Source: Malassezia furfur (taxonomy: Eukaryota). From it: DNA of 64,000 nucleotides. The DNA is taken from assembly GCA_052055015.1 (NCBI GenBank), contig JBQJIT010000012.1. The stretch is one strand, 5' to 3'. Position 1 is the first letter of the stretch, and every line of letters begins with the position of its first letter. Positions 63-63,128 of the stretch are shown here, piece after piece. The position numbers were made by a program, and so were the translations under genes. The notes beneath the pieces are model-generated. The model did no database searches and was not told the origin of the DNA. It saw only the letters and a list, made by a program, of their open reading frames with translations.

Positions 63-1455
63 CTACGGCTTCATCCGCGCAGGCACCCAGCGGCGGATGC
101 CCACCTCTTTCACACGGAAGAGACCCCGCTGCAATGCGACAACCAGGTCGCTCGGACGAGCAAGGTCTAGCCCGGCGCAGTCGACGCGCGACGGTACGAG
201 CACATGTGCGAGGATCAGGGTCTGTTGTCAGTCATACCACCTACTTTTTGCACTTGGCTGTTGACGCGGTTCACCATGCTAAACCACACCCAGCTCTTGT
301 CGCCCTGGTTGTGGTGCACACCAAACGGAGAGTGCAGCGCATCGGCCTCGTCCACGTACTCGGGCACGACCAACACCGCAAACTCCGCATGGCTAAACAC
401 CGGCCCGCGCTTGTACAATAGGTAGTCCACACAGAATTTTGACCCGTTCTTCACCACCCAGCCGAGGCTGCGGAAATGGTGGTAAACAATGTACGACAGC
501 ACAAACGGGTTGTCTGGCCTCGACCACACCTCCTTAGGCGGCGACTGCGCCGACACACTCGGAGGCAGCCGCGAAGTCAGGCAACACTGGTACAAGGCTT
601 CCACAGACATTCGCTAGATCGTCAGCATCGCGGCCCACTTACCCGGTCTTCGCCGTCGTACACGTCAAGGCACCCCAGCATCCCTGCTAGAAAAAATGCC
701 TCAACAAGTGTCAGTTGGAAGTGTTCCACGCCTTCAATTTCCAATGGATCATCCACAAGATCCGAGGCAGCGACACGCGCCATCGACTCTGTGTCTTTCT
801 GCGCCAGGTCCGCCGAAAAGTGCTTCAAGCCTTTTACCCGCGCCACGCCGGCTTGAACTTCGGGTAAATCTTCGTCGCCGCGCCAAAGCTGGGTATGCGC
901 AGCGCCGGGCTCGTTCAAGTCTCGTGCAGCATCGTCGTCCGGTGTACCGCCCAAGGCGGTAATCCCGTCGGGGAGCTGGATGCCTGCCTTGACGGCGGCA
1001 CGCGCACGCTCGATCTTGAGCAGCTTGCGCTCCTCGCGACGCTTCTGCGTCATTTGTTCCGCAGTCATCTCACCACGCTCGCGCGCTGTATACTCGGCTT
1101 CTTTGCGTGCTTTCCAGGTGGGTTCGGACCGGCTCAGGTTGCCTTTACCAAAGAACCCATGCGTCCAGAGCTCAAGAGCATCTCCGGTATCATACATCCA
1201 CACAGACTTGGTCACATCATCGTACCATGCTTTGTAGATAGGGGCATCCTGGGTCCGGTCGTAAAACCACTTCGTGCATGCATTGAACCAGTCCCACCAG
1301 GACTGCGCCCCTGGGGCAGGCCTGAAAGCAGGTGAGTGACCAATGGGCAGCGGATTTGCATACAGCTGCCGCTTGGCCTGTGTCGCTTTCTTCCCCGCAC
1401 CTTTGACGTTGGGCAGCGGCGTCGCCTCGGGCATGGCAGGCGCGCTCCCACTCAT
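63..1455 (-). CDS. SEN2: tRNA-splicing endonuclease subunit Sen2 (3 exons)
   Basis: Motifs GFFGKGNLSRSEPTW, EHFQLTLVEAFFL, YHHFRSLGWVVK.G.KF.VDYLLYKRGPVFSHAEF. Introns 614-642 (29 nt) and 222-244 (23 nt) restore the frame to C-terminal RRWVPARMKP*. Confidence 0.92.
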
Positions 1456-1712
1456 GGGCCACGAAGTAAATGTGGAGGCGGACAGATGGACGCGGCAGCG
1501 CAGGACGCTTCGGCGCTTGCTCCACACGCATGCCACCAAGGGCAGAAGGCAGCGCTCGAAGTATAGATAAAAAATGCACAGGTTGTACTCATTTATGGGA
1601 CAGAGAACTAGAAACAGGGGGGACAACAAGGGGATTAGGGAAGAAACACACGGGTCAGGGTATGTGGGTCATGAATCATCGCAAGTCGGACACAAGAACA
1701 TGGGGTAAGCAT

Positions 1713-3963: not shown

Positions 3964-4491
3964 ATGAGCGATCCAGAACTCGAGGCGATTCGCCGCGCAC
4001 GTATGGCGGAGCTGCGCGCCGCTAGTGGTGGTACGTGCGCAGTAGAACTGGGGACTTATCGACAGGTAGCAGTGGCCCCCGCGTGCCTGGCGGCGTGCCA
4101 GGCGCCGGCGGGATGGGCGGCCAGGCTGGCGCCGATGCGGATCGCGAAGAACAGATGGCGCAGCAGGAGGAGATGAAACGCCAGATGCTCTCGCAAATTT
4201 TGGACAGTGATGCACGCGAACGCTGTACGTTTACAGGAAGACTTATGCAGTGTCGCGCATCGCTCTCGTCAAGCCACAAAAGTCAAAAGCCGTTACAGAC
4301 ATCCTCATCCAGATGGCACGTAGCGGCCAAGTTCGTCAGCGCGTGAGCGAAGCACAGCTCATTTCGCTCTTGGACCAGATCGACCAGGCGCAGCCGCACG
4401 ACACAGGAAAAATCACGGTATGTTGCGCCTGCTTACACAGGTCACGCGCAAAAAGAAGGTGGAAAGCGACGACGAGGACTGGGATATCTAA
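3964..4491 (+). CDS. PDCD5/TFAR19-family protein (4 exons)
   Basis: MSDPELEAIRRARMAEL...MLSQILDSDARERLSRIALVKP..A..V...LIQMARSGQ. Introns 4031-4065, 4225-4250, 4418-4440. Confidence 0.9.
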
Positions 4492-4665: not shown

Positions 4666-5471
4666 ATGCCGCGACTGTTTCTACGCCTCCCGAAGGCGTC
4701 GTTGCAGGCATACATCACCTCGTTCCTTGGTTTTATGGACATCAAAGTTGGCAGTCAAATTTTGACCCTATTCTCTCTTTTCAACAAGATTGCCGGTATC
4801 TATGGGATCATTGCCATTTTCCAGGGCGGCACCATCGCGCAGCTCTCGCTATACATCTACTCTATCGCGACCATTCCTATCTTCATTTGGGGCCTGAAAT
4901 CCATCAGCGACGTACGTACCGTTTTCTCACCGTGCAGGAGCAGGCAGGCTCCGTGCTCCGCTATGCGCACATTTTCATCTTGGACCAAATGATCTCGACG
5001 GGCTGGACCTTTTTGTTCGCGTTGTGGTGGTTCGTGTATGCCACGCACGATGGCAAGCCCATCACAAACTCGAGCCACCAAGCAGGACTGATGAAACTCA
5101 TCGAAGATCTCGAGTCCGAGTACCGCACGCCCGAGGAGATGGCCAAGTACCGTCACAAGGAATATGACTTCAACACGCCCGAGGGTCAGAAGGAGGCCGC
5201 GCGCCGTGCTCAAGCTGCAAATGCGACGTGGATGGAGGAACGCGACTTTGCCATGGCTGTGCTCATCGGTGGCTGGCTGATCAAGCTGTACTTTGCGATG
5301 GTGCTGTATGCATACGCGTTGCATCTGCGCCATGGCACTTACTGGATGTTGCCGCTGTCCAAGTCGCGTACAGCGAATGAGGCCCATGCGACATACCAGT
5401 CGGTTCCTGCAGAAGAAGACGAGGTGAATCTATCGGGGGACGAGGAGAACAAAGCCCCCGAGCATGTATAG
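4666..5471 (+). CDS. KEI1: Inositolphosphorylceramide synthase regulatory subunit Kei1 (DUF1753)
   Basis: SFLGFMDIKVG...FNKIAGIYGIIAIF, several hydrophobic segments, KLYFAMVLYAYA. Intron 4912-4937 (26 nt). Confidence 0.85.
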
Positions 5472-5477
5472 TCTGTC

Positions 5478-5904: not shown

Positions 5905-8900
5905 CTAGGCAGAGTGACTGATCAACGCATCCTTGAGAGACTCGGCCGCCTCGTTCGTCTTGACCTTGCAGCGCAGACTGCTCGGTTTGGCATCGATCAT
6001 GCCCACGAACGACACGACGCTCTTCTCACAGGTGACTTTCATCCCGGTATACAGCAAGAAGTTGAGCACCACATTCCCGTTCACCGCGTTGCGAGCCAGC
6101 ACTCGGCACTTGCCAGTCTCCTGGTTCTTCTTGATCCGGAACACGGTCACGCCCAGGTCTTGCCATTTGCCGTCCTCCAGCTTCCAAATCTTAGCGCGCA
6201 CCTCATGTTCGGTGTCTTCACCTTCTTCGCCCTGTCCCGTAGAGGTAAGGGTGTTTTCGCTCTTGTCAGCAACCGCGTCGGCAGATTCAGCGGGTGCCGA
6301 TGAGGTGTCTTGCGCTGCACCCGTGCTGGGAGGCGCAGCGGCCGGTGCAGGGGCCGCAGTGCCGCCGAACGAAAACCCCGATGCGCCGCTAGAAGGCTTG
6401 CTGAACGAAAAGCCTGACGACGCTGGTGCCGCGTCCGAAGTCGGCTTGCCGAACGAGAAGCCTGATGAGGCTTCCGAGGACGGCTTGCCGAACGAGAAGC
6501 CCGGGGTCGACGCAGGCTTCTCTGCGGGCTTGCCAAACGAGAAGCTCGGGGCAGACGCGGCCGGCTTATCCTCCGCAGACTTGCCGAAGGAGAAACTCGG
6601 CGCCGAAGCCACTGGCTTGTCTTCGGCAGGTTTGCCAAACGAGAAGCTCGGCGCAGACGTCGCCGGCTTGTCCTCGGCAGGCTTTCCGAAAGAGAAGCTC
6701 GGCGCAGACGTCGCCGGCTTGTCCCCAGCCGGTTTCCCGAAAGAGAAACTCGGCGCAGGAGTTGATTTGTCTTCGGTGGGCTTGTTTTCTGCCGGCTTGC
6801 CGAACGAGAACCCTGGCGCAGGCGCCACTGGTTTCTCGGCTGGCTTGCCAAACGAGAAGCTAGGAGCAGGCGCCGCCGGCTTGTCTTCCGCGGGCGTACT
6901 GAGCGAGAAGCCCGTTGGCGCCGGCTTGTCCTCCTTGGGCTTGCCAAACGAGAAGCTCGGCGCTGAGGCCAGCTTGTCCTCCGCGGCCTTGCTGAAGGAG
7001 TTCGGAGCGGGCGCCGCTGACTCGGTCGCGGCAGGCTTACCAAACGAAAAGCCCGTTGTGGTAGGCGGCTTGGTCACATCGCTGGGCTGGCCCAGCGTGG
7101 CTATCGGCTTTGCCGAGCTGGAACCCTTGTCGGGTGAACCGACGTCCACGGCCCGCGCCGGAGTAACTTGGAAGGCAAACGTCGGAAGCCGTTCGTAGGG
7201 AACAGCCGCTGCTTGGGACGCTGCGTCCGACGAGCGGTCCTGCGTGCGCTTGGCGGGTGGTCTAAGGATCGCCCAGTCGGGGACGTCTCGGAACTTTTCC
7301 GGGAGCGCCGCAGGAGCAGCCGACGCGGGCGAGGGTGCAGCAGCTGGCGCCGCGGCGGGCGGCGCCGTGGCCTTGGGTGGCGCGGGCGCAGCCGGTGTTA
7401 CACTCGCCCCGAACGAGAACGATTTGGCAGCCGGCGCTGCTGGGGCCGTCGGCGCCGCTGGGGCCGTTGGCGCTGCTGGGGCCGTTGGTGCCGGCTCGGC
7501 CTCGTCCTTGCGTGGCGTCGGCAGCGGCGGCACACTGGTCTCCGGACGGGCGTCGGTTTTGACCGCATCTGTGTCGGACACATGGCTCTGCGCCGCCTCC
7601 TTTTCCGCAGTGATGGCAAGCGGCGAGGGCTTCTTGGGCCTGTGCTGCCACGCGGCCTTGGGCGCCTCGAGCAGCTCCGACTCGCCCGCCGCGCCGCGCG
7701 GCTCTTCGTCCTCCGCGGCGTGCAGACGCCGCGAGCGCCGCGGCGAGGGCGCTACCGACGCAGGTGCTGTACGCTCGACCATATCGAGGAGCGACACTTT
7801 CGGTGGTGCATCGGTATCCTGGGCTTTGCTCGCCGACGCATTCGTCGACGCGCGCTGCCGAGCCGCCTCCAACGCGCGTGCACGCGTCGACTTGGGCGTC
7901 TGGGTCCGTGTGGGTGACGGCGCGGGCGACGGTGATGCGCGCGAGCGCGTCTGGTACGGATTGACCACCTCGGGCACCGGCGGTGTATAGTTCCGCGGCG
8001 CGGTCGTCTCCAGCACCGAGCGCATCGTCGAGGCGGCGCGCGTCGTGCGCGGTGACGGTGCCTCAGCGGCAGGTTCAACGGCGAGCGGCGGCTCGCCGAT
8101 CGCGGCACGGATCGTGCGCAGAGCATCATCAGCACGCTCAACGGTCTCGGGCGCGGCGCGCTTACGTGTCGGTGCGTTTGCGGGCGACGCTGTGAGTGGC
8201 ACAGAGGGTGCAGCATACTGCACCCGGAACGCTGCGCTCGGCGACGCCTCCGTCTTGCGCCGCTTGGGGTCGTCGGTGGGCGGCAGGGCGTTCATGGACC
8301 GCGATGCGCTGAGATTGGAGCGCATGGGCGAGTAGTGGCTTGGATGGGGCGAAGCACCGCCGCCAAAGTAGATCGGACGGTGCCGGCGCCCGGTGCTGGG
8401 TGCAAAGGGCGAGACAGAGGCCATGCTCGACGAGCGCGGCGGGGCACGCCGTGTGGGCGTCTCGAGCGAGCCCGGATGGAAGGGCGACGCAGGCTGGGCC
8501 GGACGCTGGGCAAGGGGCGACGGATTCGACGCAATGGACGAGTCCGCCTGGTATACGCTGCGGGGCAACGCCCATTGTGTCCCGTAGGTGTCGCGCGGCG
8601 GAGCGTCGAGCGCCGCAAAGTCGCCCGCCGGCGACGCTGCGGCGAGCTGCGCGCGCTCGTCGCGGCGCACCGGCACGTCGCCACCGACAGGACGCAGCGC
8701 CGAGGTGCTCTCGGTGCGCGGGATGTGCGCAGCCGGTGGGGTGGGCAGCGCACGGAAGCTCGTGGTGCTCGGCAGCCGAGACGGTGTGTGGGCGGCGCCC
8801 AGCTCGTCGTCGGCACTCGGCAGGTGCGCGGCGCCGGCCTCGCCGCGCTCCGCATCTTGTGCATGCGGTTGGCGGAACGGCGAGATCCAGCTGAACAGCC

Positions 8901-11397: not shown

Positions 11398-11401
11398 TCC
11401 G

Positions 11402-12201
11402 CTACGATAGCACTAATCCGAAATACTCGACGACGTGCGCCACGATCGCGGTCCATTCCATCATCGCACCGTTGCCTGCGTCAGCCAGTTACGTACCCAA
11501 ATCGCCGCACGCCAACCGTTTCTCGATGGGGCCAAACACCTCGTAATGCAACGTATCGCGCAGCACATCCAAATGCTGGTCTGTGAGGGGATGCAGGTAC
11601 ATGAGTGTATTCATGGCTGGGTACACCCACGTAGGCGTATCAGGCGACAGCGCGCGCAAAAACGAGGTCACGACATTGTCGCACAGACCATGCGCGATCT
11701 TGGCCAGGGTATTGGCGCTGCACGGCGCAAGGAGCACAACGTCCGCCCACCGGCGCAGCTGCGTAAGCGTCACACTACGCACCTCGATGTGCAGCACGGG
11801 GTCGCCGAGTACCTTCCACGCGCCCCACTCATCGGCATCGGTCCAGAGCCGAAGCCGAGGGCCATGCGGCATCGTCGCCTCGCCGCCCTGCGCAATCGTT
11901 TCGGCGGCCTTGTTCATGATAGACAAATCCTTTACAGTATACCTCTCGTCATTCAGCCCACGAATCGCGTCACGGTCGACAAAATGCAGTGCGTCGCGTG
12001 TCGCAACGATCTGCACTTGGACGTTGGCGTACTGGTGAGCGACGACGTCCATACCTTGAGCAGTTCCTTGGCTATTAGTGACACCTTGACACTCGCGACG
12101 CTCCCTGTACATGCTAATACTACATGCAGCGGCCGCTCGGCTGTCGGCGGCACTTGGAGCTGCGCGTACATCGACCGCAGCGAGCGCGGCACGTCCGTCA
12201 T
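11402..12201 (-). CDS. Phosphopantothenoylcysteine decarboxylase (Hal3/Cab3 flavoprotein family), 4 exons
   Basis: VLACTGSVASVK, HIELRRWAD..L.APCSANTLAKIA.GLCDN, PAMNTLMY.HP, LACGDLGNGAM. Introns 12032-12054, 11759-11782, 11476-11496. Confidence 0.92.
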
Positions 12202-13717: not shown

Positions 13718-14968
13718 ATGTCTCTTACTACGAAGCTTGCTGTTACCGACCTGGACCTCGCAAACAAGCGTGTGCTGATTCGCGTGGACTTCAACGTTCC
13801 CCTGGACGGTGACAAGATTACCAACAACCAGCGCATTGTCGCGGCGCTTCCCACAATCAAGTATGCCATTGAGCACAAGGCCAAGGCGGTGGTGCTCATG
13901 TCGCACCTCGGCCGCCCCGATGGTCAGAAGGTGGACAAGTTCTCGCTGAAGCCAGTTGTGCCGGAGTTGAGCAAGTTGCTCGACCGCGACGTCGAGTTCC
14001 TCGACGACTGCGTTGGCCCCGAGGTCGAAAAGAAAGTGAACGAGGCCAAGGACGGTCAGGTGATCCTGCTCGAAAACGTCCGCTTCCACATTGAGGAAGA
14101 GGGCAAGGGCAAGAACGCGAGCGGTGAGAAGGTCAAGACCGACAAGGACGCTGTGGAGAAGTTCCGCCAGGAGTTGACCAAGCTCGGCGACGTGTATATC
14201 AACGACGCGTTTGGCACGGCGCACCGTGCGCACTCGTCGGTGGTCGGTGTGGAGCTGCCGCAGCGTGCGGCGGGCTTCCTGGTGAAGAAGGAGCTGGACT
14301 TCTTCTCCAAGGCGCTCGAGAACCCCGAGCGGCCGTTCCTGGCGATCCTGGGTGGTGCCAAGATCTCGGACAAGATCCAGCTCATTGAGAACATGCTGGA
14401 CAAGGTGAACATGCTCATCATTGGCGGTGGTATGGCGTTCACCTTCAAGAAGCAGATTGACAACATGAGCATTGGCAGCTCGCTGTATGATGAGGAGGGT
14501 GCCAAGAAGGTGCACGAGATCATGGAGAAGGCCAAGAAGAACAACGTCGAGGTGCTTCTGCCCGTGGACTACGTGACCGGCGACAAGTTCGGCAAGGATG
14601 CCCAGGTCGGCCACGCGGATGACGCGAGCGGTATCCCCGACGGGTGGATGGGCCTGGACATTGGCGAGAAGAGTCGCAAGCTCTTCGCCGATGCGATTGT
14701 CAAGGCCAAGACGATCCTGTGGAACGGCCCGCCCGGTGTGTTTGAGTTTGACAACTTTGCCGGCGGCTCCAAGGCGCTGCTCGACGCGGTCGTCGAGGCC
14801 GAGAAGAAGGGCAGCACGGTGATTGTCGGCGGTGGTGACACGGCGACGGTCGTGGCCAAGTACGGTGAGGAGAAGAACATCTCGCACGTGTCGACGGGCG
14901 GTGGTGCTTCGCTCGAGCTGCTCGAGGGCAAGGACCTGCCCGGTGTGTCCGCGCTGAGCTCCAAGTAG
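13718..14968 (+). CDS. PGK1: Phosphoglycerate kinase
   Basis: [42 protein letters not shown]. Confidence 0.99.
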
Positions 14969-14985
14969 ATGTGTGACTAGCGAGG

Positions 14986-17415
14986 CTATTCGTTCTGCAT
15001 AATGAAGGCCAGTTCTTGCTTGAGCGTCTCGTTGCGGTACTGCAAACGAATGTTGGGCACGTTTGTCTTGGACACGTCGTTCCCGTCAGGCCCCGGCCGG
15101 AAGAAGTGGGTGCCGAGCCAGTGACGCTTGATTTCCATCTCCCAGCCGGACTGGAGCACACTGTTGCGTGCCAGCTCGCACATGTCGGTCGATGTGAGCT
15201 TGTAGATTTGTGTCGCGATACTGTACTCTTCGAGCAGCGGCTCCTTCGACAGATGGAACTGGAGCGGGTCGTCGGTCGACAGTGTGACGACGAGGCCCTT
15301 GCGGAAGTACTCAGGGAACGGGTTCCGCTCGTATGCCAAAAAGAGTGCATTGTTGCTCAGCGGTGACATGGCGAGCGGAATCTGCTTCAGGTAGTAGAGG
15401 TACTGCAGCACAGGCACCTTGCGGAGGGTGATGCCATGCGAAATCGACTGCGAGGTGAGGTACGCGGCGGCCATATGGTCTGGGTCGCCCGCCTCGCCGG
15501 CGTGCGGCCGGAGAACGAGCGTAGAAAAGCCGCGCAGGCGGCGCCACTGGTTGAGCGAGGCCATGTTGGCGTACATGTAGTACAGCCAGTAGGAGTACGG
15601 CGGGCTCTGGCTGTAGTTCCACTGACGCGGTGGCGGGAACTGTCGGAGGAAGCGGCGCTCAGGCTTGCTCTCGTCATCGACCATATCGAAGCCGATCACG
15701 CGCTGCAAAAAGATGTGCAGCTTGGGATGCGTCTGTGGGTTCTGTGTTACCTCAAACAGCGGCTGGAATATGTTGTGGAGGAGGTCCTGGAAGTTGGCCA
15801 CGTTGTTGTTCGCTTTGTACACCTCGTACAGCCGCGGCACCTGGATGAGCCACCGTATGTTGGGGTTGAACAGGTGGTGGTCCACGACCCAGCTCGCGAG
15901 CTTGTCCCACTCGTCCGGGTTGCGTCCGTAGATCGAGATGCGGTACTCGGACATTTGGTATTTGCTCTGCTCGAGGTCGTGCGCAATCTCGCGCGTAATC
16001 TCAGCAAGGTAGCGTCCATTGATGTAATTGTTCGTTTTGAGGAAGATTTCGCGGAGCTGTGATTTGCCGATCGGGTTGTACTTGAGGTTGAAGCGGTCGA
16101 ACCGATGGAAGGCGTCTTGGTGTGCGTGCATGTCGAGCGTGTCGATGCTCAGGTCGTACGCGGTGAGCCCGAGCGAGCGGAACACGTCATCGAGCGTAAG
16201 CGTTTTGCCGTCGCGCTGCAGCACAAGGTCGTCCGGGAAGCGCTTGATCTTGGACTTGATAAAGCGCAGCAGGTGCTTTTGATTCATGCTCGCACTGTGG
16301 TGGACGTGGGTATCAACCTTACGCACGTTGTAAAAGTCGCGATGCGGTACCTTTTTGATCGCATCCAGCTCGCGGTACTCGTTGAGCAGCTTGTACAGAT
16401 TCCACTTGCCCTCGAGGTACTTGAGACGACGCCATGCAAACGTCTTCGCGGGGCCATCGACCGTGAACGTGTGCAGGAAGTCGAGGTCGCGGAAGTACTC
16501 GTCGCTCGTCGGTACCTTGGTCACGTACCGCCGCGTGCGGTGCGCCACGACGCCCGCCTCGGCGCGGCCGTTGCGGGGATCGCTGTCGTCGCGGTCGAAC
16601 CACACCTGGAACACGCCGTGATCCGCCTCAAACTCGAACGGCCGATCGCCTAGCATATGCGGACCAGGAATCTCCATGTCCGACATGCGGAACACGCCGG
16701 GCTTGCCGCCACTGCTTTCGAGCAGCTGCTGCGCGGCGAGGACATTGGCGTGCGATGCGGGCGGCATCGGCTCCGGCAGCCCGCCACCGGCGTCCGGGCG
16801 CACGAACGACGACGCGGGAGCGGGCGTAAAATGTTCCCAGTGCGGCCGTGGCGGTGCGGGGTACACCTTCCACGGCTTGGGCCGCTCCGCTGCGTCGTCC
16901 CATGCGCAGCCGTCAACTTTTACCGCGCCGTCCTCGACGTGCTCATCAATGACCGGGAGCGATACGCCTGCGGCGCGTGACCATTCCTCACAGTACTCCG
17001 CATCCCAGTTCTTGGGGTTGTCGAACAGGTTGCCCTGCAGGCTCGTGTCCATGTACTTTTCGCGCAGTTCCAAGCACCGACGCAGATTCTTGAACAAATC
17101 CTCGCACTCGGATGGCATATGGTGCGGCATCTTCAGGATCTGGCTCACGACGTGGTCATCGCCGAACTGCATCTCCTCACCCATCGTGAACGCGGTGCCG
17201 AGCGTCGCGGCCGCTTCGGTCGCGATCGCCGAGTCCATGGCGGAGAGTTTCGCGTCGACCTCGTCGTGGTAAGGCGCGCCATTCTCCTCCTCGTCGGCGA
17301 CCTCATCGGCAATTGCCGCATGCCAGCCCTCGCCGACGCCACGCTCCAGCGACGCCTCGCGCGACTGTGACTCGTACTCGGCAGGCTGCCGAGGAAAGCG
17401 GCCGTACGCGCTCAT
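14986..17415 (-). CDS. AMD1: AMP deaminase
   Basis: HRDFYNVRKVDTHVHHSASMNQKHLLRFIK, RPHAGEAG, SLSTDDPLQFH-like motif. Start MSAYGRF. Confidence 0.97.
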   Translation of the reverse strand: MSAYGRFPRQPAEYESQSREASLERGVGEGWHAAIADEVADEEENGAPYHDEVDAKLSAMDSAIATEAAATLGTAFTMGEEMQFGDDHVVSQILKMPHHMPSECEDLFKNLRRCLELREKYMDTSLQGNLFDNPKNWDAEYCEEWSRAAGVSLPVIDEHVEDGAVKVDGCAWDDAAERPKPWKVYPAPPRPHWEHFTPAPASSFVRPDAGGGLPEPMPPASHANVLAAQQLLESSGGKPGVFRMSDMEIPGPHMLGDRPFEFEADHGVFQVWFDRDDSDPRNGRAEAGVVAHRTRRYVTKVPTSDEYFRDLDFLHTFTVDGPAKTFAWRRLKYLEGKWNLYKLLNEYRELDAIKKVPHRDFYNVRKVDTHVHHSASMNQKHLLRFIKSKIKRFPDDLVLQRDGKTLTLDDVFRSLGLTAYDLSIDTLDMHAHQDAFHRFDRFNLKYNPIGKSQLREIFLKTNNYINGRYLAEITREIAHDLEQSKYQMSEYRISIYGRNPDEWDKLASWVVDHHLFNPNIRWLIQVPRLYEVYKANNNVANFQDLLHNIFQPLFEVTQNPQTHPKLHIFLQRVIGFDMVDDESKPERRFLRQFPPPRQWNYSQSPPYSYWLYYMYANMASLNQWRRLRGFSTLVLRPHAGEAGDPDHMAAAYLTSQSISHGITLRKVPVLQYLYYLKQIPLAMSPLSNNALFLAYERNPFPEYFRKGLVVTLSTDDPLQFHLSKEPLLEEYSIATQIYKLTSTDMCELARNSVLQSGWEMEIKRHWLGTHFFRPGPDGNDVSKTNVPNIRLQYRNETLKQELAFIMQNE

Positions 17416-30450: not shown

Positions 30451-30854
30451 ATGGGACAGGTGTCCAGACGGAAGCGCACGCACCACGCCCGGCGAGGTGA
30501 GTAGCATGGTCTAACGCAGACGTCTCGCGTGCAGCACGTACGCGTGCACGTCACCTCGATTATGACCAACGTCACGAGAATGCAACGAGCTCCGCCCGGC
30601 GCCAAAAGCTCGAAGCACCCACCGAGCTCGACCCGGACAAGGCAGGCTTAGGCATGTTTTACTGTGTCGAATGCGACCGGCACTTCCCGAACAACAACGA
30701 CCGCGAGGCGCACTTGGCCAGCAAGCTGCACAAGCGCATCGCGAAAAAGGTGCTCACCGAGAAGCCCTATACGCACGAAGAGGCGATGCGTGGAGCCGGC
30801 ATCGGCGTCGATAACCGGCGACGCGATAGCCAACAAATTGAGCTGGACAACTGA
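30451..30854 (+). CDS. BUD20: C2H2 zinc-finger pre-60S factor Bud20/ZNF593
   Basis: [14 protein letters not shown]....H..SKLHKR......KPYTHEEA. Intron 30497-30519. Confidence 0.9.
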
Positions 30855-40068: not shown

Positions 40069-40088
40069 CGACCTTTCGATACCCCACG

Positions 40089-42560: not shown

Positions 42561-43206
42561 CTACTCATTCTTCTCCAGGTAGGCACGCAGCGCTTCGAGC
42601 CAGTTTTGGCGCAGCTTCATCGGCCCTTCGTGCTTCACGACGAAGCGGTACGTGTCGTTACGCTCGTACGAGTCGGGCACGAGCTTGGAGTCGGTGAACG
42701 CCACACTTCCGAAAATCGCCTCGGGTGGCGAAATGCGACCAGGCATAGCCATATGACGCGCGTCTGTATAAGTTGGAATACATACCACAAAGATGTGCCC
42801 ATCCATTCTCGCGCATCTCGGCCTCAAAAATAAGGTTTTCGTCCGATGCGATCTGGCCCTGCAGCACATGGTGCAGCGCGTTCCAAAACTCCTCGTTCAT
42901 GTTCACCTTGTCGGGGTTCTCACGAACAAACTCGGAAGGGTTTGCGTCTCCCGGCTGGATATGACCAATGACCGACAAGCCATTGGGCGACTTCGGGGGG
43001 CGTTCGAAGAGCGTGATGGCCCAGTTTCCTTGCCCCACATCGTGGTAAAAGAGACCGGTTTCGGTGTCGGTGTCGCGCTTGACCGCTTGGAGAAGGGGTA
43101 CACTGGCATGCAGGCCGCGCACCGAGATAGACGGAAACACGACCTGGGGGCGCATAGCACCCGTACGCAGAGCGCGCAAGCTTACCGAAGAACCAAAACG
43201 CAGCAT
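42561..43206 (-). CDS. Uncharacterised, probably mitochondrial fungal protein
   Basis: Presequence-like MLRFGSSVSLRALR..RGLHAS; GWAHLCDAR...GRISPPEAIFGSV...YERNDTYR after intron 42764-42785. Confidence 0.65.
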
Positions 43207-45880: not shown

Positions 45881-46603
45881 ATGCCCTGGATCAGCTCCGT
45901 CGCATTGGCGACGGTTGTACTAATTGCTCTATGCTGTACACTGGCAATATTACGGCAAAGGCACAGTACCAAGTTGCGTCCTAATGCACCTGTTCGTCTC
46001 GCAGCTCTACTCGGGTCAGGTACGTCTGGCGCTCATAAAAGGTGGGCACACATCCGAAATGCTCGCGCTGCTGAGCTCCTTGCCCGCCGATCAGTATGCG
46101 CCGTTTCTGTACATGGTGTCTTCTGGAGATACGCACAGTTCCGCGAAAGCATGCGCCTTTGAAGAGCAATACCGGGGCACATCGAAAGCCCGTGAGGGGC
46201 TTTGTGTGGCCGTTCCTCGCGCTCGGTCGGTAGGACAGAGCTGGCTCACGACGCCCTTCACGGTGGCCTGGAGCTTGGGATTCTGTATGTGGGCGTTTGG
46301 ACTAGCGCCACTATATGCCCATTGGCGGCGCGGCACGCGGCTTCCCTTTGTTGATGTGATCCTGATGAACGGACCGGCGACGTGTGTGCCCGTGGCATTG
46401 GTTGCCTATGCGCCCCGCGTACGTTTTCTAACTCACCCCAGCTCATTGGACTGCCCTCACCACGCATAGTGTACATCGAGTCCTTTGCACGTGTGCGGTC
46501 ACTGTCGCTCACTGCGCGAATTTTGCGGCATGTCGTGGACGAGTTCGTGGTGCAATGGCGCACGGCTGACCCGAGCGCTACGTATTGTGGCCTATTAGTG
46601 TAG
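45881..46603 (+). CDS. ALG14: UDP-GlcNAc transferase subunit Alg14
   Basis: LGSGGHTSEM, PRARSVGQS..TTP, NGPATCVP, YIESFARV.SLSLT, VVQW. Introns 46020-46041, 46419-46441. Confidence 0.94.
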
Positions 46604-47214: not shown

Positions 47215-48536
47215 TCACTTGCTCGACGAGCAATTGCCGCCGCCGCAAACTCCACCGACGACCGCGGCAATGATGATACTGATCAGCACGACTGTGTAAG
47301 CACTCGAGTGGCCACGTACCCAAGATCCAGAAGCAGATCCAGCGCATCTTGCGGCGCTTCTTGGCCGAAATAACCGCCTTGTCCGTCTGCTGACGTCTGT
47401 CTGTGAGTGATGCACACGTACGCTGCTTGGACCTCTTGCTCGGTGTGCTGCGCGTGGTCCTTGATCACGTTCAGCTGCTCGTCCTGCTGCTCGACCAGGA
47501 TCGACATCTCCTGGAAAAGCGCGGCAAGCTCAGTGATCGTCTGCTCAATACGCTGGATATCGTTGTGGCGCTCCTGCACCTCGCGCAGCGCACCGCGCGC
47601 CTCACCCTGGCGGTTCGAGTTGCGCAGCGCCTGCGCAAAGATCTGCTGGCCGCCCGACGAGCCGTCTAACGCGCCCTGGATCTCCTCCTGCGTCGCGTCC
47701 GGCTTGACAATACGCAGCTGGCGCTCGGTACGCTGGCGGTATTTGGTGCGGTACGCCTTTTCGACCTCCTGGTAGCGCAAGATGGTCTCCTTGAAGCGGT
47801 TCTTCGCAGCACCGATCTGCGTGAGGCGCACGTTGCGGTCGATGCCCTCGGGTGCGGGGCCCGATGCGGGGATCTTGACGGCCTCGGCCTCGAGCGCCTT
47901 GATCCGGTTCTTGACCGCGTTCGTCAGGCTGCTCGTCTCCTGCGCAAGCGCGGTGAGCTGCGACTCAGCCTCGAGCTGCGACGCCTCGCCAACGTTGTTG
48001 AGCGAGCGCGAGTGCAGCTCCGAGATCCGGTTGATGTTTTGGTCGATCTGACGAATGGCGTCCTGGATGCCGCTAATCTCGCTGAAGAACGAGCCGCTGT
48101 TGCCGTCGGGCATGTTGATCGCCGTGCTGCCCGCAGCGCCCGCGCCGTACGACTGGCCAGGCGTGGCGCTCGCGTACGTCGCCGGGCCGAGGCCATCGCC
48201 GCTCGTCACCACGTTGGTGTAGCGCGGCTGCATCTCGTACGAGTCCTGCGGCTGCGCCGAGACCGCCGACGCGGGCACGTTCGGCTGCTGGAAGACACCG
48301 TGCGAAGAAGGCGTGTATGCAGTCGTCTCCGAGTACACGCCGACGGGCGTCGCACCCACCGCGTTGCTCGTCCGCGGCAGGCCCGTTGCCGGGTCGTAGG
48401 GGACGCCGCTCGTCTGCTGCGTCGGGAAGAGGTGGTCGCCGTAGCCGTTGTTACCCGGCCCGGTCTCCGCGCCGCCGTATCCGCCGGACCCAGCTGCCTG
48501 CTGGGCCCGCATCGCTGCCAAACGATCGCGCGCCAT
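47215..48536 (-). CDS. SSO1: Plasma-membrane syntaxin (t-SNARE)
   Basis: MARDRLAAMR, Habc region, SNARE motif ALREVQERHNDIQRIEQTITELA.LF.EM..LVEQQ, C-terminal TM. Introns 47397-47421, 47292-47319. Confidence 0.92.
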
Positions 48537-48635: not shown

Positions 48636-49486
48636 CTAGCGTCGCGGCGCGCCAGCTGAGTCAGCGGCATCCGCCGCTGCACGCTCCTGGGCATCGCGCA
48701 AGGCGAGGTAGCCGCGGTTGTTCGGCGACGAGTACCATAGCAAGTCGCGCTTCGACACCGGGTCCGCAAAGTGCGGGAGCGGCTTGTTCTTGAGGAGCCA
48801 CTTGTGCGGCTGCAAAAGCGCACGCAGACTCGTAGCGTTGTAGTAGCGGCACACGATCGAGCCGCCCGCGGCCTCCACGGCCTGGATCGCCGACTGCGAC
48901 GCACGCGACACGACAATCTGGATGGGCGTAGTAAGGTGCGATGCTCCGTCGCCCAGCAGCTTCACGCCGTCGGCCACGCGGTGGATGCAGCGCGACTGGT
49001 ACAGCTCGCGGATCGTAATCGGCTCAGTAGGGTTCAGCCGCCCCTGGTCAATCCAGTACTGCAGACGGTCCACATTGAGCGGGACAAGTGTCTGTGCATG
49101 GCTGCGTCAGTCAGCACCGCGGCACGCACCTATTCACAAAGCCCCGCTTGGGGATGAGCCGCGTGAGCGGCGTCTGGCCGCCCTCGAAGCCTGGTTTCGG
49201 CTTGCCGTTACCCGCGCGGGCCTTCTGGCCCTTGTGGCCACGCGTCGAGGTGCCACCGCGGTCGGAGCCGTCGCCGCGCCCGAGACGCTTGCGCTGTGTG
49301 AGCGAGGGGGCGACGTACGTTCTTCTTGGGCTGCGCCGGCGTCAGGTTGCCGACGCGCACCGGGGACACGGTGGCATAGTTGGCCATTGCGATGCGAGGG
49401 AGTGCCGTCGCCGTCGCGCCCGCGCGCACGGTGGGCCGCGCGAACAGCCGCAGCGGCGCCGCCATCCACGACAGGACACTGGGCAT
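48636..49486 (-). CDS. MRPL10: Mitochondrial ribosomal protein uL15m
   Basis: [57 protein letters not shown]. Introns 49294-49318, 49102-49129. Confidence 0.92.
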
Positions 49487-49517: not shown

Positions 49518-51378
49518 ATGCCGCGCTCGGTGTCGGAGCTGTTGGCGCAACAGGGCGGCGCGGCGCCCAAGGTACGTGCGCACCCTACTTACCCAGCCGC
49601 GGTTCGTCTCGAAGAAAGAGCGCGAGGCGCATCGCGACCAGGAAAAGCAGGCCGAGGCTGCCGCGGAGGCGGAGCGGCTGCAGCGCGCCAAGGATGCGCG
49701 TCGCGCGTGGGAAGGCCAGGCGGCCGCAACGTCGACGCCCGACGCGGCGCGCGCGCCCGTCAAGCGCGCCGCGACCCCGAGCGAGCACGATACCCCCGAG
49801 CCGAGTGACGAAGGTGGCAGCGATGCGATCCGGCAGCGCTACCTCGGCACGCGCCCCGACCGCGCGCGCAAAGTGCGCCGCTCCAACGACCCCGCGAAGC
49901 GCTTCCAGTTCGAATGGGACCAAACCGAGGATACTACCGACCCGCACCAGCTTGCCCTTGCCGAGTCGGTGCAGACACCTGTGCTTGCCGGGCGCGCAGG
50001 CCTGGAGGGCTCCGAGCGCCGCGGCGGCCGCCCCAGTGTGCTCAAGTCGACCCTCGACGAGAAGCACTGGACCGAGAAGCCGCTGAGCGAGATGAAGGAG
50101 CGCGACTGGCGCATTTTTCGCGAGGACTACGGCATCGCGGTCAAGGGTGGGGCCATCCCCCCGCCGCTGCGTTCGTGGCGCGAGTCGTCGATCCCTGCGC
50201 CGGTGCTTGAAGCGATCGCCGAGATTGGGTACAAGGAGCCATCGCCCGTGCAGCGGCAGGCCATCCCCATTGGGCTAGAGCGGCGCGACCTGATTGGTAT
50301 TGCCGAGACCGGCTCGGGCAAGACGGCGTCGTTTGTGATCCCGATGCTGGCGTACGTCGCCGAACTGCCGCGGCTCGACGAGGAGAATGCGCATCTTGGC
50401 CCGTACGCGCTGATCCTGTCGCCCACGCGCGAGCTGGCACAGCAGATCGAGGCCGAGGCGCGCAAACTCGTGACGCGCCTCGGCGTGTCGGTGGTATCGG
50501 TCGTGGGTGGGCGCGACATTACCGAGCAGGCCTTCCACCTGCAGCGCGGCGCCGAGATAGTCATTGCGACGCCCGGTCGTCTCAAAGACTTGCTGGAGCA
50601 GCGCATCGTGATGCTCGGGCAGTGCCACTACCTCGTGATGGACGAGGCGGACCGCATGGTTGACATGAACTACGAAGCGGAGCTGGACTACATTCTTTCG
50701 CACCTGCCGCGCGACGCAACCGAATCGCGCGCGCGGCGCGTCACGATGCTCTACTCCGCGACCATGCCGCCGTACGTCGAAAAGATTGCACGCACCTACC
50801 TGACGCGCCCCGCCACTGTGCTCATCGGCAATGCGGGGCAGGCGGTCGGCACCGTCGACCAGCAGGTCGAGTTTGTGCACGGCGAGGAGAAGCGCAAGGC
50901 GCGTCTGCTCGCGGTGCTCGACAGTGGTCTGCCGCCGCCCATGATTGTGTTTGTCAACCAAAAGACCACCGCGGACCAGATTGGCCGCGAGCTGCGCCGC
51001 GCTGGGTGGCGCGTCGCTGTGCTGCATTCGGGGCTGTCGCAGACGCAGCGTGAGGCGTCCATTGCGTCGTTGCGCGAGGGGCGCAACGACGTGCTGTGCT
51101 GCACCGACATCGGTGCGCGTGGTATCGATTTGCCCGACGTGTCGCTCGTGGTCAACTACCAGTTCCCCACCAACTTCCCGTCGTACATCCACCGCATCGG
51201 CCGCACGGGCCGTGCGGGCAAGGCGGGCCGTGCCGTGACGTTTGTGGACGACGACGACGCGGAGCACCTGTTTGCACTGAAGCAAGAGGTGGCCAAGTCG
51301 CCCGTGTCCAAGGTGCCGATGGAGCTCGCGCGGCACCCCGCGGCGCAGGCGCCGCCCGCCGCGGCGCGCGGCGCATAA
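49518..51378 (+). CDS. PRP28: DEAD-box splicing helicase Prp28
   Basis: PKP.F.SKKER, KRFQFEWD..EDT, HW.EK.L.EM.ERDWRIFRED, AETGSGKT, DEAD, SAT, HRIGRTGRAG. Intron 49572-49596. Confidence 0.94.
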
Positions 51379-57400: not shown

Positions 57401-57993
57401 CTCCTTGATCCCGGTGCCCGACCACTGCAGGCACGGCACGTCAGCGTGCTGCGCGACGATCGTCGACGAAATTTTGTCGCCCAGCGACCGCATCGCCGAG
57501 CCGGGCGGACCGATAAAGAGGATGCGCGGCTCCAGACGCGCAAGCGACTCAGGCAGCCGGGGGTTTTCGGACGCATGGCCCCTGTCGTCAGTGGGTGTCG
57601 AACGTACCATCCTGCCCACACCGCATGCACACCGGCGCGTTCGGCAACGTCGACAATCAGCTCGACGTTTGCGTAGTTGTTGCCGTTCGGGCCGCCAGGC
57701 ACTTCGACGTAGTTGTCTGCCATCCGAATGTACTCTGCATTCACGCGAAGGTCTTCAGGCGTGGCCATCACGGTGAACTGGATGGCGCGATCGTCGCCAA
57801 ACGTCTGATACGCCCATTTGCGCACCGAACGGATCTCTTTCACGGCTGCAATACCGTTATTGCAAATGAGGATTTTCGTGATGACACTGTGACCACCGTG
57901 CGAGCGCACAAATTCAGTCACCATGCCCGGCGGGGCGTCGCGGAGCGTGGTCCCACCATAAAAATGCTCATCGACTTTTGGAAGCTCGGTCAT
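51428..57993 (-). CDS. ACC1: Acetyl-CoA carboxylase
   Basis: [25 protein letters not shown] (across intron 57582-57607), EVMKM biotinylation site, CT-domain [10 protein letters not shown]. Confidence 0.98.
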
Positions 57994-58555: not shown

Positions 58556-59639
58556 TTAGTGCTTGCCAGCGTTCTTCGGTGGGTCGTACACAATCTTGCG
58601 GTTCATGATCGGCGACCACTTGAAACGCTTGGTCCACACGGCCAGAGCAAACATGCTCGAAAGAAGGATGATGGCACGGAAACCAGCGCGCTTGCGTTGG
58701 TCCTGCTCGGGCTCCGAAGCCCAGTGCCTGAACGGTCAGTCGAGTGCGGGCAACGTACAAGAAGGTGACGACGTCCTTGGCCATCTGGCTCGTCGTAGCC
58801 GGAGTACCGTCGGGGTATTCCACAATACCGTCAAACAGGACACGCGCCATGGCAATCTGGGTGCCCGGGAAGAACGGGTTGTAGTTGAGACCCTCCTGGA
58901 CGTTGAAGCCCGCAGGCGGGTCGCAGTAGCCGGTAAGCAGCGAGAAGACGTAGTCAGCACCACCGTGGCGAGCCTTGATGATCAGACTCAGGTCCGGCGG
59001 CAGAGCACCAGCGTTCGCAGAACGCGCGGCCTCCTCGTTGGGGTAGGGGCTCGGCAAATAGTCCGCAAGCTTACCAGGGCGCTGGAACATGTCACCATCG
59101 TCGTTCGGGCCGTCGGTGTATTCCACCTCGGAAGCCATGTCCTTGGCCTCGTCCACGGTGTGCGACACACCAACCAGGTTGCGCCAGGCAATGCGCTGCA
59201 GCGAGTGACAAGTCGCACACACCTCCTGGTACACCTGGAAGCCACGGCGGATCGACATGTGGTCGTAAGTGTCAAACCAGCCAAGCGACGACCAGCGGTA
59301 CGCAGGCGGGTGCAGGCCCTCCTCAGCAGGGCTGCTGGCGCTCAGCGAGTCCACGAAGGGAAGCTCGCCGTACACCTGCTGATACCAGACCACCGAGCCG
59401 ACAGCGACGGCGGTCGCGGCAATCGCCGAGGTGCGCGAAGTAAGCGCCGACTGCAGGATAAGCGTGCGCTTCGCATACGTACCGAAACCTTCGACTCAGC
59501 GCGAGTGGAAGCGAAACGAACCTGCGCGGTCAGCATTCCATCCGGCACCCTCGTATCAACGTACAGGCTGCGCGGGAGCCGCCTTGAACAGCGAGCGGGC
59601 CGCAACGGCACGGGCAGAAGAAGAGAACAGCTGCGCCAT
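58556..59639 (-). CDS. CYT1: Cytochrome c1, mitochondrial
   Basis: [16 protein letters not shown] heme motif, [29 protein letters not shown]. Introns 59522-59564, 59451-59482, 58728-58758. Confidence 0.96.
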
Positions 59640-59937: not shown

Positions 59938-60795
59938 ATGCCGAGCGTGCAAGAGCCAGTGCCGGGCGAGGCGTTTACGAGCGTGCGGTGCTTGCGCGAC
60001 GCAGCACCGACAGCGTGTTCGGCAGACATACTCCTTCCGGATGCACTGAGGGGACAGGGCCGCGAGGCATCCGCCTCGTCGGATGACGCGCGCATCCTGC
60101 AGCACCCTCTGGCCGCGCACGTCCCTCTTTGGACCGCGCACGTCCATCGCCTCGTCCAGTCATCCACGCAGCTTGCCCAGCTCTTCCCAGAGCTGTGGGG
60201 GCATACTGTGTGGAGTGTAGAGACCATCCTCACGTCTGACGCCGTTGCTCAGCTCTGGGAGCACGTCCAAACCATCCAGGGCACCGATACAGTGCAGCTC
60301 CGCGCCAGTCTCCGCCTTGCACAGGACGGCTCGTCTCGCGCAGTGGTGGCCGCATTTCCGCTCGAGAGTGTGGAGCCGGTCCCTGTGCGGCTCGATACCC
60401 AGCCGACTTCGCTCCAGAGGACGACCATCGCGCTCAAAACGGACCTGCGCGCAGAGTACGACACCAGTCGGCAGCGCGTGCATGCTGACCTTGCGGGCAA
60501 GCTCCCGAATACATGCTTCGACGCCTTGCTGTGGAAGGAAGGCTCCTCGGAGCGCGAGCGTTGGCTCACTGAGGCAAGCATTGCCAACATCGTGCTTCAC
60601 GTGCCGGGTCAGGGATGGTTTACCCCGCCTTTTGACGGCCTCTTGCCGGGTTTGCTTGTCCAGGAGCTGGTGCGCAGCGGTCGCGTACAGCAGCAGCCAC
60701 TTGCGGTGGATACGGTACGTGCACAGCTCGCGTCTGGCGCGCAGCTGTGGCTCGGAAATGCGGTCCGGGGACTATTTCCGGTGGTATGGGAGTAG
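59938..60795 (+). CDS. PLP-dependent aminotransferase class IV, aminodeoxychorismate lyase (Abz2)-like
   Basis: H..RL, LKTDLRAEYD, DALLW, TEASIANI, WFTPP..GLLPG, LGNAVRG. Confidence 0.75.
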   Translation: MPSVQEPVPGEAFTSVRCLRDAAPTACSADILLPDALRGQGREASASSDDARILQHPLAAHVPLWTAHVHRLVQSSTQLAQLFPELWGHTVWSVETILTSDAVAQLWEHVQTIQGTDTVQLRASLRLAQDGSSRAVVAAFPLESVEPVPVRLDTQPTSLQRTTIALKTDLRAEYDTSRQRVHADLAGKLPNTCFDALLWKEGSSERERWLTEASIANIVLHVPGQGWFTPPFDGLLPGLLVQELVRSGRVQQQPLAVDTVRAQLASGAQLWLGNAVRGLFPVVWE

Positions 60796-63128
60796 CTATT
60801 GTACATAGGCGTCCGCACGCAGCAGTGTTCCCACCTGCTTGCTCAGCGCCTGGCCAATCTTGCGCCGCGCAACGTATACGTCGTCATCAATGACTGCACT
60901 AAGGAAGTCGTCCGCAGCGCCGCCCGTTTGGGCCGCGTATGTGCGCCAGGCGCGATGCAGCGAAAGCGGCGTCGGCCAGCGTTGTACGATTTCCTGTGCC
61001 TTTTCAGGCGAAAGGCGGCGGATGCATAAGAGCATCTTGGTCCAGACATCTTGCAGCGTGTTGGCTGCGCTGCCTTTGCCGTGCAGTGCCTGGAAGGTGT
61101 GGTAAGACGTGTGAAAAGGGGTATGTGACTGCTGCGCGCGTAGATGGCTCTGCAGCGTATCGTAGTGTTCACGATCGATCATTTCGTCGCGGATCACATG
61201 CAGCGGCTGGTGGGTATACATCTCGTGCAGGAGCCGGTTCACGTTGGCAAGGAAATCGGCGGTGCCTTCGTTGTTCGCCGAACGATGCACAAAAAAACCG
61301 TCGATGATCTGGGTGCTGCTCAACGCAGTTTGGATTCGGTCGCCGTGGCGTTGCACAAGGTTTGCAACGTCCACGTCCTCAATCAAGTAGAAGATCCGGC
61401 CCAACCCAGATGCGCGGAGACGTTGCTGCGTAAGAGACGCGTCGTACCTTTTGGTCATGCCAGCGCCCATCAAAGATACTCGACGTCAGGTCGTCCAGTC
61501 GCTTGCGCTCCACGACGGCATCTAGTACCACCTCCTGAACTAAATTCCATGGCTGTGCGTCTGATGGCGGCAGGTTCGGTTTAGGACGGGCGACCCAGAG
61601 AATGTCGCCTAGCTCCAGCGCACGCAACTCGCACTCCACGCCACGCCGGCGCATCGCCTCCTCAAACGTGACGCGGCGACCGGCGTCGGGGCCATGATGG
61701 GATCTGGAACGCACTTCCCGATGGTCCATGATCATGTGGATGGTATACGAGTCCGGCGGAAGACAAATGCACCCGAGCGGCGTCCGCGCAGACTCCGGCG
61801 CAGGGGGCACCAGCTCGGCGCCGTGCACACTGGGGCTCGAGCTGATCAGCGTAATGGACGACTGCCGGTTCGAAAGCGGCGAGTGGACCACCATGGGACT
61901 GGAGCGCGACCGGTCTTGAATAATTGGAGACGAGTCGATGAGCGAGATGCTGATGCGAACCGGTTCCATCGGCTGTGCAGAAGACACATGTTCGCTCGCA
62001 ACGTAAACGTCGTCTTGGGACGAGCGCACCAGGTCCACAACGACATGTTGGGTAGGCTCCAAATCCGGCTCCACCTCGATCCCATCGTCCACCGAGAGAC
62101 CCGATTGCGTCGACGTGGTTCGTTTCCAACTACGCCGCTCAGGCCCCTCGAGAAAGTGCTTGCGCGGCGGTAAGTAGAGCCGGTTCATGGGGCGCTCCGG
62201 TCCAGCGGACGTTTCCGGGGTCGTCTGCAAAACAGCTGGTGTCGGAGCAGGTGGAAGCTGCGAGGGTAGGTCCGGGGGTCGATCGTGCGAACGCCGTGGC
62301 TGCGACGCGGTGTCGCCAGACAGGGGATCGGCCGATGGAGTGGACGTAGTCGTGCCCGCCGCCGTCACTTCTGCCGCAGGGTTCGTCACGCCCTCGGCCT
62401 CAGCAAGTACGCGTGCAACACTCAAGCCTTGCTCGCTCAGGTAAAACAGGGGAGGGTTGCCGGAGCGGTAGACGTACGCCTTGTCGATCAAGGTCTTCAT
62501 GGCGCTCCATGCCGTGATATACGACCGCCGTGATTGCGTAAATTGGCTTCCAGAGCCACGGTGGGACAGAGAAGAGGGAGCGGATGTACGCGACCCACCG
62601 CCAGGCACCGTATAGTCACTGTCGCAAAAGGGCTGGGCCCGTGCGATCAGTTCGGCCTTGCCAACCTGTGCATCATCCTGCTGGTCTTCGAGGACCTTGG
62701 TAAAAATGCCCACAAGAATGCCATGCGCGCCAGAACGTGGCTCTGGAACATATTCCTTGCGTGGCCTTCGCGCCCGCGTCGTCGGCGCGGCTCGTGGGGG
62801 TCGTGAAGCAGCCTCGCTCGACCGCGACATCGATGCTGCATGAGCGGCGGCACGTACGTAGTTCTGGAATAGAGTGACCATGCTCCATGCACCATTGTGC
62901 GTACTCCTTTTCGAGTCGCTTGGCAATCGAGTCGCCAATGCCTGCGAGGCGCACCGTTTCGCGAGGGTGTATGAACGGCTCCGTGGCAGCGGCTAAGGAA
63001 CGGTGCGCCTTTTGGTAGGCAGAGGCCGCTTTCAATCCCTTGGAGCGCGCATCCTCGGCCCAGGTCCGCAAGAATTCAAGCCATACACAGTTGGGATGCA
63101 CGTCGGCACCATGTTCGTGCGCCTGCAT
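60796..63128 (-). CDS. MUS81: Structure-specific endonuclease Mus81
   Basis: N-terminal HhH (AYQKA..SL...LAGIGDSIA), YVPE.RSGA, ERCC4 domain LELGDILW..VERKRLDDL..SI.DGR..QK. Introns 62836-62857, 61426-61447. Confidence 0.94.

Follow-up and report, generated by a model that had tools for sequence, protein, structure and literature searches.

The 64-kilobase (kb) stretch of DNA analysed here over its full length (the window; contig JBQJIT010000012.1 of the Malassezia furfur assembly GCA_052055015.1) raises the question of whether the segments of little more than 20 nucleotides (nt) that interrupt many of its reading frames, each starting with GT and ending with AG, are ordinary spliceosomal introns. 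A sequence-only reading of the window had claimed more than 40 such introns, most of them 21-26 nt long, and had placed them at the extreme end even for Malassezia. In the present analysis, a curated list of about 54 GT-AG introns was obtained, and we consider it highly probable that they are ordinary U2-dependent spliceosomal introns of Malassezia, typical of the genus and shrunk to little beyond their own signals.

The window has a GC content of 0.59-0.68 and is dense with eukaryotic housekeeping genes, among them those for acetyl-CoA carboxylase (ACC), DNA polymerase alpha, AMP deaminase, phosphoglycerate kinase (PGK), eIF2B-epsilon, cytochrome c1, MUS81 and ribosomal proteins. The closest named protein matches were the PPC decarboxylase (PPCDC) of M. 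brasiliensis with 92% identity, an M. furfur protein with 89% and a hypothetical protein of M. brasiliensis with 58%. Since the best named matches come from these two species, the host is, judged by protein similarity, a Malassezia of the furfur/brasiliensis group.

Length and splice signals of the introns

Statistics on lengths and signals were calculated for 53 curated introns, a 54th (31180-31211) having been added afterwards from a spliced alignment. Two of the 53 measured 21 nt, ten 22 nt, 11 23 nt, five 24 nt, four 25 nt, six 26 nt, three 28 nt and two 29 nt, while the remaining ten ranged from 31 to 64 nt. The median was 24 nt, the mean 27.1 nt and the minimum 21 nt, and 38 of the 53 fell between 21 and 26 nt, which bears out the number and the length range claimed beforehand. 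The minimum of 21 nt, also part of that claim, is reached by two verified introns (11476-11496 and 44931-44951). With 54 introns in 64 kb, the density is about 0.8-1 per kb of window DNA.

GT and AG ends were present in all 53 introns, GT-AG being also a search criterion. The 5' splice site read GTACGT in 28 of them; position +3 was A or G in 51, +4 was C or T in 48, +5 was G in all 53 and +6 was T in 45, in agreement with the form GTRNGT that is capable of pairing with U1 and U6. All 53 contained the branch motif CTNAY, as CTCAC (21), CTGAC (12), CTTAC (7), CTAAC (5), CTTAT (4), CTCAT (3) or CTGAT (1). Between the presumed branch A and the 3' end, 29 of the 53 introns have exactly 5 nt, 50 have 4-8 nt and all have 4-11 nt; counted from the 5' end, this A stands at position 16-18 in those of 21-23 nt, the shortest. 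CAG formed the 3' end in 49 of 53. The anatomy described in the sequence-only reading (GTRYGT, CTNAC and, after a further 1-5 nt, YAG; no polypyrimidine tract) was therefore recovered across the curated set. No intron had a 5' splice site of the U12 type, whose signals are the 5' splice site [AG]TATCCTT and the branch TCCTTAAC: GTATCC was found at none of the 53 5' hexamers. From their motifs, the signals are assigned to the canonical U2 type, read by the major spliceosome, and their spacing appears close to minimal.

The same lengths stood out when motifs were counted across the whole window. The loose motif GTRNGN...CTNAY...AG, allowed 18-30 nt, was matched by 75 sites versus 31.4 in 30 dinucleotide-preserving shuffles, with peaks at 22 nt (15 versus 2.7 expected) and 23 nt (11 versus 3.0 expected). 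A position-weight matrix built from 24 well-supported introns of the window and applied with a cut-off score of at least 7 and 20 shuffles yielded 43 sites of 21-26 nt versus 4.1 expected and 50 of 21-29 nt versus 5.5, an excess that is partly circular because the matrix was trained on introns of the same window. The matches amounted to about twice the training set and were limited to a narrow length band: seven sites of 15-20 nt were found versus 2.5 expected, and at 46-60 nt there was no excess (10 versus 9.8). No introns shorter than 21 nt rose above background in the window. A 15-nt match at 47817-47831 on the minus strand, GTGCGCCTCACGCAG, lies in frame in a syntaxin exon, inside an ungapped match of 250 residues to a related locus (L003, see below), and is coding; since it nevertheless carries the full motif, the motif alone is insufficient to define an intron.

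Support from relatives, domain profiles and homologous proteins

Evidence that makes no use of the motif was obtained for 31 of the 54 introns: their removal restores a continuous conserved protein according to related loci, Pfam profiles, PDB chains or motif-blind alignments of homologues. This confirms the earlier claim that spliceosomal GT-AG introns are needed to rebuild conserved proteins here. The ten examples singled out in the sequence-only reading all run from GT to AG on a sensible strand, with GTA/GNGT, CTNAC/T and YAG. As introns, five of them (11476, 31325, 43459, 44931 and 61426) gained motif-independent support, while for the other five (222, 4418, 17817, 23366 and 33590) the case consists of the motif and the joining of reading frames.

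Metagenome contigs were scanned with the large ACC exon, which yielded 68 loci. Two of them from one species (L001 and L004) are syntenic with the window over 50.7-64 kb, and one from another species (L003) over 43.3-64 kb. In nucleotide alignments with well-aligned flanks, the 26-nt intron of the ACC gene (57582-57607, minus strand) was absent to the exact length from both L001 and L003. From L003, likewise, exactly 22 nt were absent at 61426-61447 in the MUS81 gene (minus strand; the L001 frame is continuous here), exactly 25 nt at 47397-47421 in the syntaxin gene (minus strand), exactly 25 nt at 49294-49318 in a gene for a ribosomal protein of the L15/L27A family (minus strand) and exactly 22 nt at 43459-43480 (plus strand). 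Two 28-nt introns on the minus strand, 47292-47319 in the syntaxin gene and 49102-49129 in the L15/L27A-family gene, were also absent from L003, with small indels nearby. At 44931-44951 (minus strand), a 21-nt segment that is in frame and free of stops, the L003 orthologue of a PX-domain gene lacks exactly the seven residues VRVPLTQ, inside the PX domain. A second MUS81 intron of 22 nt (62836-62857, minus strand; motif score 10.4) coincides with a change of frame in the window, where L003 keeps a single one.

Other sites are occupied in the relatives by introns of a different length. The 23-nt intron of the Alg14 gene (46419-46441, plus strand) corresponds to about 50 nt at the same site in L003, and at the site of the 40-nt intron of the RPS15 gene (63568-63607, minus strand) L001 has about 26 nt and L003 about 58 nt. 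Of the three introns of the cytochrome c1 gene, all on the minus strand, 58728-58758 (31 nt) measures about 25 nt in L001 and about 73 nt in L003; 59451-59482 (32 nt) measures about 31 nt in L001 and is apparently absent from L003; and 59522-59564 (43 nt) measures about 27 nt in L001, and L003 shows a donor, GTACGT, at this site.

When the exons were translated separately, Pfam coordinates ran on across the junction in eight cases. The dsDNA_bind profile covers 16-48 and 50-97 at the exon ends of the 26-nt intron 4225-4250 (plus strand) in a PDCD5-like gene, and Kei1 1-67 and 67-180 meet at the 26-nt intron 4912-4937 (plus strand) of the Kei1 gene. At the 49-nt RPL35A intron 29995-30043 (minus strand), L35Ae 1-41 and 42-95 coincide exactly with the exon ends, and L27 2-26 and 29-72 lie at those of the 24-nt intron 36515-36538 (minus strand), which contains an in-frame stop, in the mitochondrial L27 gene. 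The other four are introns already described: Alg14 8-120 and 119-166 meet at 46419, ERCC4 2-74 and 71-139 meet at 61426, and cytochrome c1 1-178 and 180-218 as well as S19 1-53 and 55-81 lie at the exon ends of 58728 and 63568, respectively.

A spliced aligner of our own, which knows GT-AG ends and no internal motif, was applied to homologous proteins. In the PPC decarboxylase gene (11405-12171, minus strand), introns of 23 nt (12032-12054), 24 nt (11759-11782) and 21 nt (11476-11496) were placed with four out of four homologues, and the M. obtusa protein aligned without gaps. PDB chains of the PPCDC/HAL3 type (6eoa, 1e20 and 1mvl) agree: the 24-nt segment, in frame and free of stops, appears as an exact gap of eight residues (VRSVTLTQ), and the 21-nt segment, which contains an in-frame TAA, as a gap of seven residues when the stop is read as X, its removal restoring CGDLG/NGAMME (conserved CGDxGNGAM). 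A 50-nt candidate in the same region (11581-11630) was ruled out, as the PDB chains align across it without interruption. In the D-amino-acid oxidase gene, on the plus strand, introns of 32 nt (31180-31211), 22 nt (31325-31346), 23 nt (31536-31558) and 26 nt (32244-32269) were placed with six, six, five and seven of seven homologues, respectively; the first replaced a 48-nt candidate at 31180-31227. In a long unnamed gene at 39178-42499 (plus strand), alignment of the M. brasiliensis homologue supported introns at 39215-39236 (22 nt), 39341-39368 (28 nt), 39492-39516 (25 nt), 41980-42002 (23 nt) and 42272-42300 (29 nt), and the homologue lacks the eight residues of the in-frame, stop-free 24-nt segment 39787-39810 (motif score 11.2). 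Because the aligner used a linear gap cost, six insertions in this gene became false introns of 47-187 nt, and only six short ones were accepted. One more intron of the gene, 40452-40473 (22 nt), carries the motif and joins 164 and 507 codons in a region where the homologue is strongly diverged.

The introns that follow were assigned by motif and frame-joining or by gene modelling. In a gene resembling the tRNA-splicing endonuclease Sen2 (minus strand), the 23-nt intron 222-244 (motif score 9.0) joins frames of 123 and 52 codons, and PDB searches with its flanking exons did not confirm it; 614-642 (29 nt, full motif) joins open reading frames (ORFs) of 348 and 132 codons; and 1322-1363 (42 nt), of lower confidence, comes from the gene-model script. 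The PDCD5-like dsDNA_bind gene (plus strand) has two such introns, both joining frames, 4031-4065 (35 nt, score 10.4) and 4418-4440 (23 nt, score 9.5). In a Spc34-like gene, 17817-17839 (23 nt, plus strand, score 11.7) contains an in-frame stop and joins 148 and 469 codons, the Spc34 N-terminus lying in the upstream exon. An in-frame stop is also found in 21847-21869 (23 nt, minus strand, score 9.0), which joins 65 and 346 codons of a Phos_pyr_kin-domain gene, and in two introns of unnamed genes: 33987-34008 (22 nt, plus strand, score 11.7; 242 and 686 codons) and 38742-38764 (23 nt, minus strand, motif present; 96 and 390 codons). In the DNA polymerase alpha gene, DNA_pol_alpha_N 20-66 starts two residues past the acceptor of 23366-23387 (22 nt, plus strand, score 11.7), and a Pfam search with the first exon gave no match. 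The 22-nt intron 33590-33611 (minus strand) follows codon 4 of an LSO1/CCDC124-like gene, where the motif adds a first exon of 13 nt with the ATG.

Motif and frame-joining further point to 20635-20660 (26 nt, minus strand) in a zf-HIT gene, 30497-30519 (23 nt, plus strand) in a zf-C2H2_jaz gene, 49572-49596 (25 nt, plus strand, score 11.1) in a DEAD-box helicase gene and 42764-42785 (22 nt, minus strand) in an unnamed gene, where 174 and 66 codons of high coding score are joined. On the plus strand, 28698-28720 (23 nt) and 28842-28867 (26 nt) were assigned to one unnamed gene in the same way. Between them lies the in-frame, stop-free 24-nt segment 28811-28834, which is of lower confidence and has a motif score of 11.7 as its evidence, and 29015-29038 (24 nt, plus strand) is a lower-confidence candidate with a partial motif score in the ORF-joining scan. 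The gene-model script together with motif scores of 10.4 gave 29783-29816 (34 nt, minus strand) in the RPL35A gene and 63423-63457 (35 nt, minus strand) in the RPS15 gene; at the 5' end of the latter, near the window edge, the script alone gave 63924-63987 (64 nt, minus strand), again of lower confidence. A 29-nt candidate at 8190-8218 was ruled out, with just eight open codons downstream.

A coding-potential filter on 60-nt flanks kept 19 of 104 motif matches and lost introns later proven real, and it was dropped as too noisy. A gene-model script in which introns were penalised only lightly merged the entire window into a single 'gene' with 212 introns and was discarded; a stricter version, with 31 genes and 43 introns, served as a guide only, as it missed some genes and made some introns overlong (43459-43558 for 43459-43480). 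In its output, gene packing appears extremely tight, with gene ends as drawn by this crude script: the stop codons of the PGK and AMP deaminase genes lie about 17 nt apart on opposite strands (14968-14986), and the 3' ends of the coding regions of DNA polymerase alpha and a Scm3-like gene seem to overlap by about 14 nt (27676-27689). An Rfam scan of the whole 64-kb window returned no family at the gathering score, and no small nuclear RNA gene was found in the window.

Spacing of the signals and alternative explanations

From these data, a typical intron of 22-23 nt is composed of a near-invariant GTACGT, 6-9 spacer bases, CTNAC with the presumed branch A at 16-18, 2-3 bases and CAG, the 3' splice site being the first YAG about 5 nt past this A. 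Since there is no polypyrimidine tract, recognition would have to run across the intron, through strong signals at a fixed short spacing.

In introns of 21-23 nt, this layout leaves about 4-6 nt between the regions pairing with U1 and U2 and cannot accommodate a tract. In line with the sequence-only reading, the 5' splice site and the branch may be too close for the U1 and U2 small nuclear ribonucleoproteins to be bound simultaneously, which would call for an altered assembly route or a reduced or altered set of early factors, for instance no tract binding of the U2AF65 type or U1 followed sequentially by U2. The human A complex is said to fill 79 nt, and how shorter introns escape steric hindrance is acknowledged to be an open problem (PMC4463651). 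On the other hand, the strong canonical signals suit normal pairing with U1, U6 and U2, and ciliates, as other eukaryotes whose introns measure about 25 nt or less, are regarded as users of the spliceosome (PMC5014332). A modified assembly is thus possible in our view, but doubtful.

Several points, besides the partial circularity of the position-weight excess, weigh against reading all these segments as ordinary U2-dependent introns. For 23 of the 54, the evidence is confined to the motif and frame-joining, and a few of these are weak (1322, 28811, 29015 and 63924). Protein conservation shows the removal of the segments indirectly, and it is from this and the sequence that we infer the splicing itself, as spliceosomal excision of a lariat, as well as the exact branch nucleotide; the branch A was assigned from its motif, and its position is putative. 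Finally, the three 24-nt segments at 11759, 28811 and 39787 and the 21-nt segment at 44931 leave the reading frame open, so that their retention in some transcripts is possible in principle.

Some of these four segments might accordingly be coding insertions, or might be optionally retained to give two protein forms. Public protein models seem to favour this: the NCBI model of the M. brasiliensis PPC decarboxylase and a 187-residue database entry for the gene of the window (P0007 and P0008) both translate the 24-nt PPCDC intron as eight residues. However, both also end at the stop inside the adjacent 21-nt intron, with loss of the conserved C-terminus, and they therefore look like annotation errors. 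All four segments show every element of the intron motif and score 9.1-11.7. The 24-nt PPCDC segment splits the conserved HIE/LRRWAD, which is continuous in the three PDB chains and in six annotated fungal homologues, and the segment in the PX domain is absent from the syntenic orthologue. We consider coding or optional retention improbable.

The idea that these short segments match the motif by chance, or are patched sequencing frameshifts, can be given practically no credit. GC-rich DNA does hold long random open frames, and background motif matches occur at about 0.5 per length class, but sites in the window outnumber those in shuffles by a factor of ten, and only at 21-29 nt, and the exact-length gaps in relatives, the Pfam profiles and the PDB chains already refute it.

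Intron turnover and short introns in Malassezia

Over 43300-64000, the presence or absence of 14 window introns could be judged in L003. Nine or ten of them were absent from it, all of these 32 nt long or shorter, versus four shared (46419, 58728, 59522 and 63568), and therefore intron content turns over rapidly between these related species. The introns of L003 itself are longer, about 50-73 nt. The ACC intron 57582-57607 lies after residue 128 in phase 2, and none of 37 other fungal ACC loci (within L001-L063) has an intron there, while introns after residues 46 and 261, common to 31 of these 37 loci, are both missing from the window. This suggests a lineage-specific position, explained most simply by a gain after loss of the ancestral introns, with loss elsewhere as the alternative. 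For comparison, the median intron density in Ustilaginomycotina is 0.14 per kb of coding sequence (PMC8476143, Table 1), while the value of about 0.8 for the window is counted per kb of total DNA. No introner-like families were found in the window, the best pair of the same length having six of nine spacer bases alike.

Lengths divisible by three were scarce, with 7 of 50 frame-blind motif matches of 21-29 nt (P=0.0017), none of them at 27 nt, and 7 of 43 curated introns (P=0.010). Only two of the six introns of such length that were scored contained an in-frame stop, in what is a sample from a single window. As a tentative suggestion, the mini-introns could largely be young lineage-specific insertions from a secondary wave of gain after ancestral loss, perhaps kept in check by surveillance of the reading frame, which would account for the shortage of lengths divisible by three.

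The intron signals of Saccharomyces cerevisiae are GUAUGU and UACUAAC. The introns of the window resemble them in the near-invariant 5' splice site and branch site and in not depending on a pyrimidine tract; those of S. cerevisiae, however, are few and long, with a mean of 397 base pairs (bp) (PMC8476143), whereas the class described here measures 21-29 nt and has C instead of U at +4. The mini-introns of ciliates (Paramecium, about 25 bp; PMC5014332) are of similar length, likewise vary little in size, have strong splice sites and measure a multiple of three less often than expected, a shortage that in ciliates has been explained by nonsense-mediated decay of transcripts left unspliced (PMC5014332). 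In contrast, their lineage is unrelated and their sequence AT-rich, while the window introns are rich in GC and have a branch motif like that of yeast. With human ultra-short introns (43-65 nt; PMC4463651), the same question of steric hindrance in early spliceosome assembly arises, but they are G-rich, rare and have weak or absent signals, unlike the strong signals found here, where the short class is the norm.

Within Malassezia, short introns have been published before. The curated set of M. sympodialis comprises 5350 introns averaging 30 bp, 5271 of them (99%) supported by RNA-seq (PMC5389616, Table 2), which added 2585 supported introns beyond homology alone (PMC5389616). In M. restricta, the median intron length is 30 and the mean 37.2 (PMC9241646, Table 1), the minimum intron length having been set to 20 and then 15 for its annotation (PMC6473144), and a review ascribes 'very short introns' to Malassezia genes (PMC7426719). 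The window introns, with a mean of 27.1 nt and a median of 24 nt, belong to the same genus and size class, and the earlier claim of an extreme position within Malassezia was overstated. Since the window mean fits the published values, the present finding is a correct rediscovery. The published annotation work needed RNA-seq and minimum-intron settings of 15-20. It concerns other species than the window, and the published text, as far as it was available, has no discussion of mode, minimum, splice or branch consensus or spliceosome, the length distribution in M. sympodialis being shown in Suppl. Fig. S8. A literature search, with subscription journals outside its scope, returned no paper on mode, minimum, splice signals, branch geometry, spliceosome inventory or intron gain in Malassezia.

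The earlier claim that gene finders miss these introns holds for some gene models, namely the PPC decarboxylase model of M. brasiliensis already mentioned and a D-amino-acid oxidase model of M. furfur (P0128, 312 aa). The latter does not contain the 63-residue exon between the 22- and 23-nt introns of the gene (window 31137-32364, plus strand), which was probably skipped by the gene model. Public protein models of Malassezia thus carry errors that stem from short introns, in the form of retained in-frame introns, truncation at an intronic stop and a skipped exon, and these errors are therefore inherited by any proteome comparison in this medically relevant genus of skin yeasts. Although the existence of such introns was already known, a culturable yeast in which introns of 22-23 nt are standard and carry textbook signals would be a convenient system for asking how close the U1 and U2 sites can lie and how short a lariat can be.

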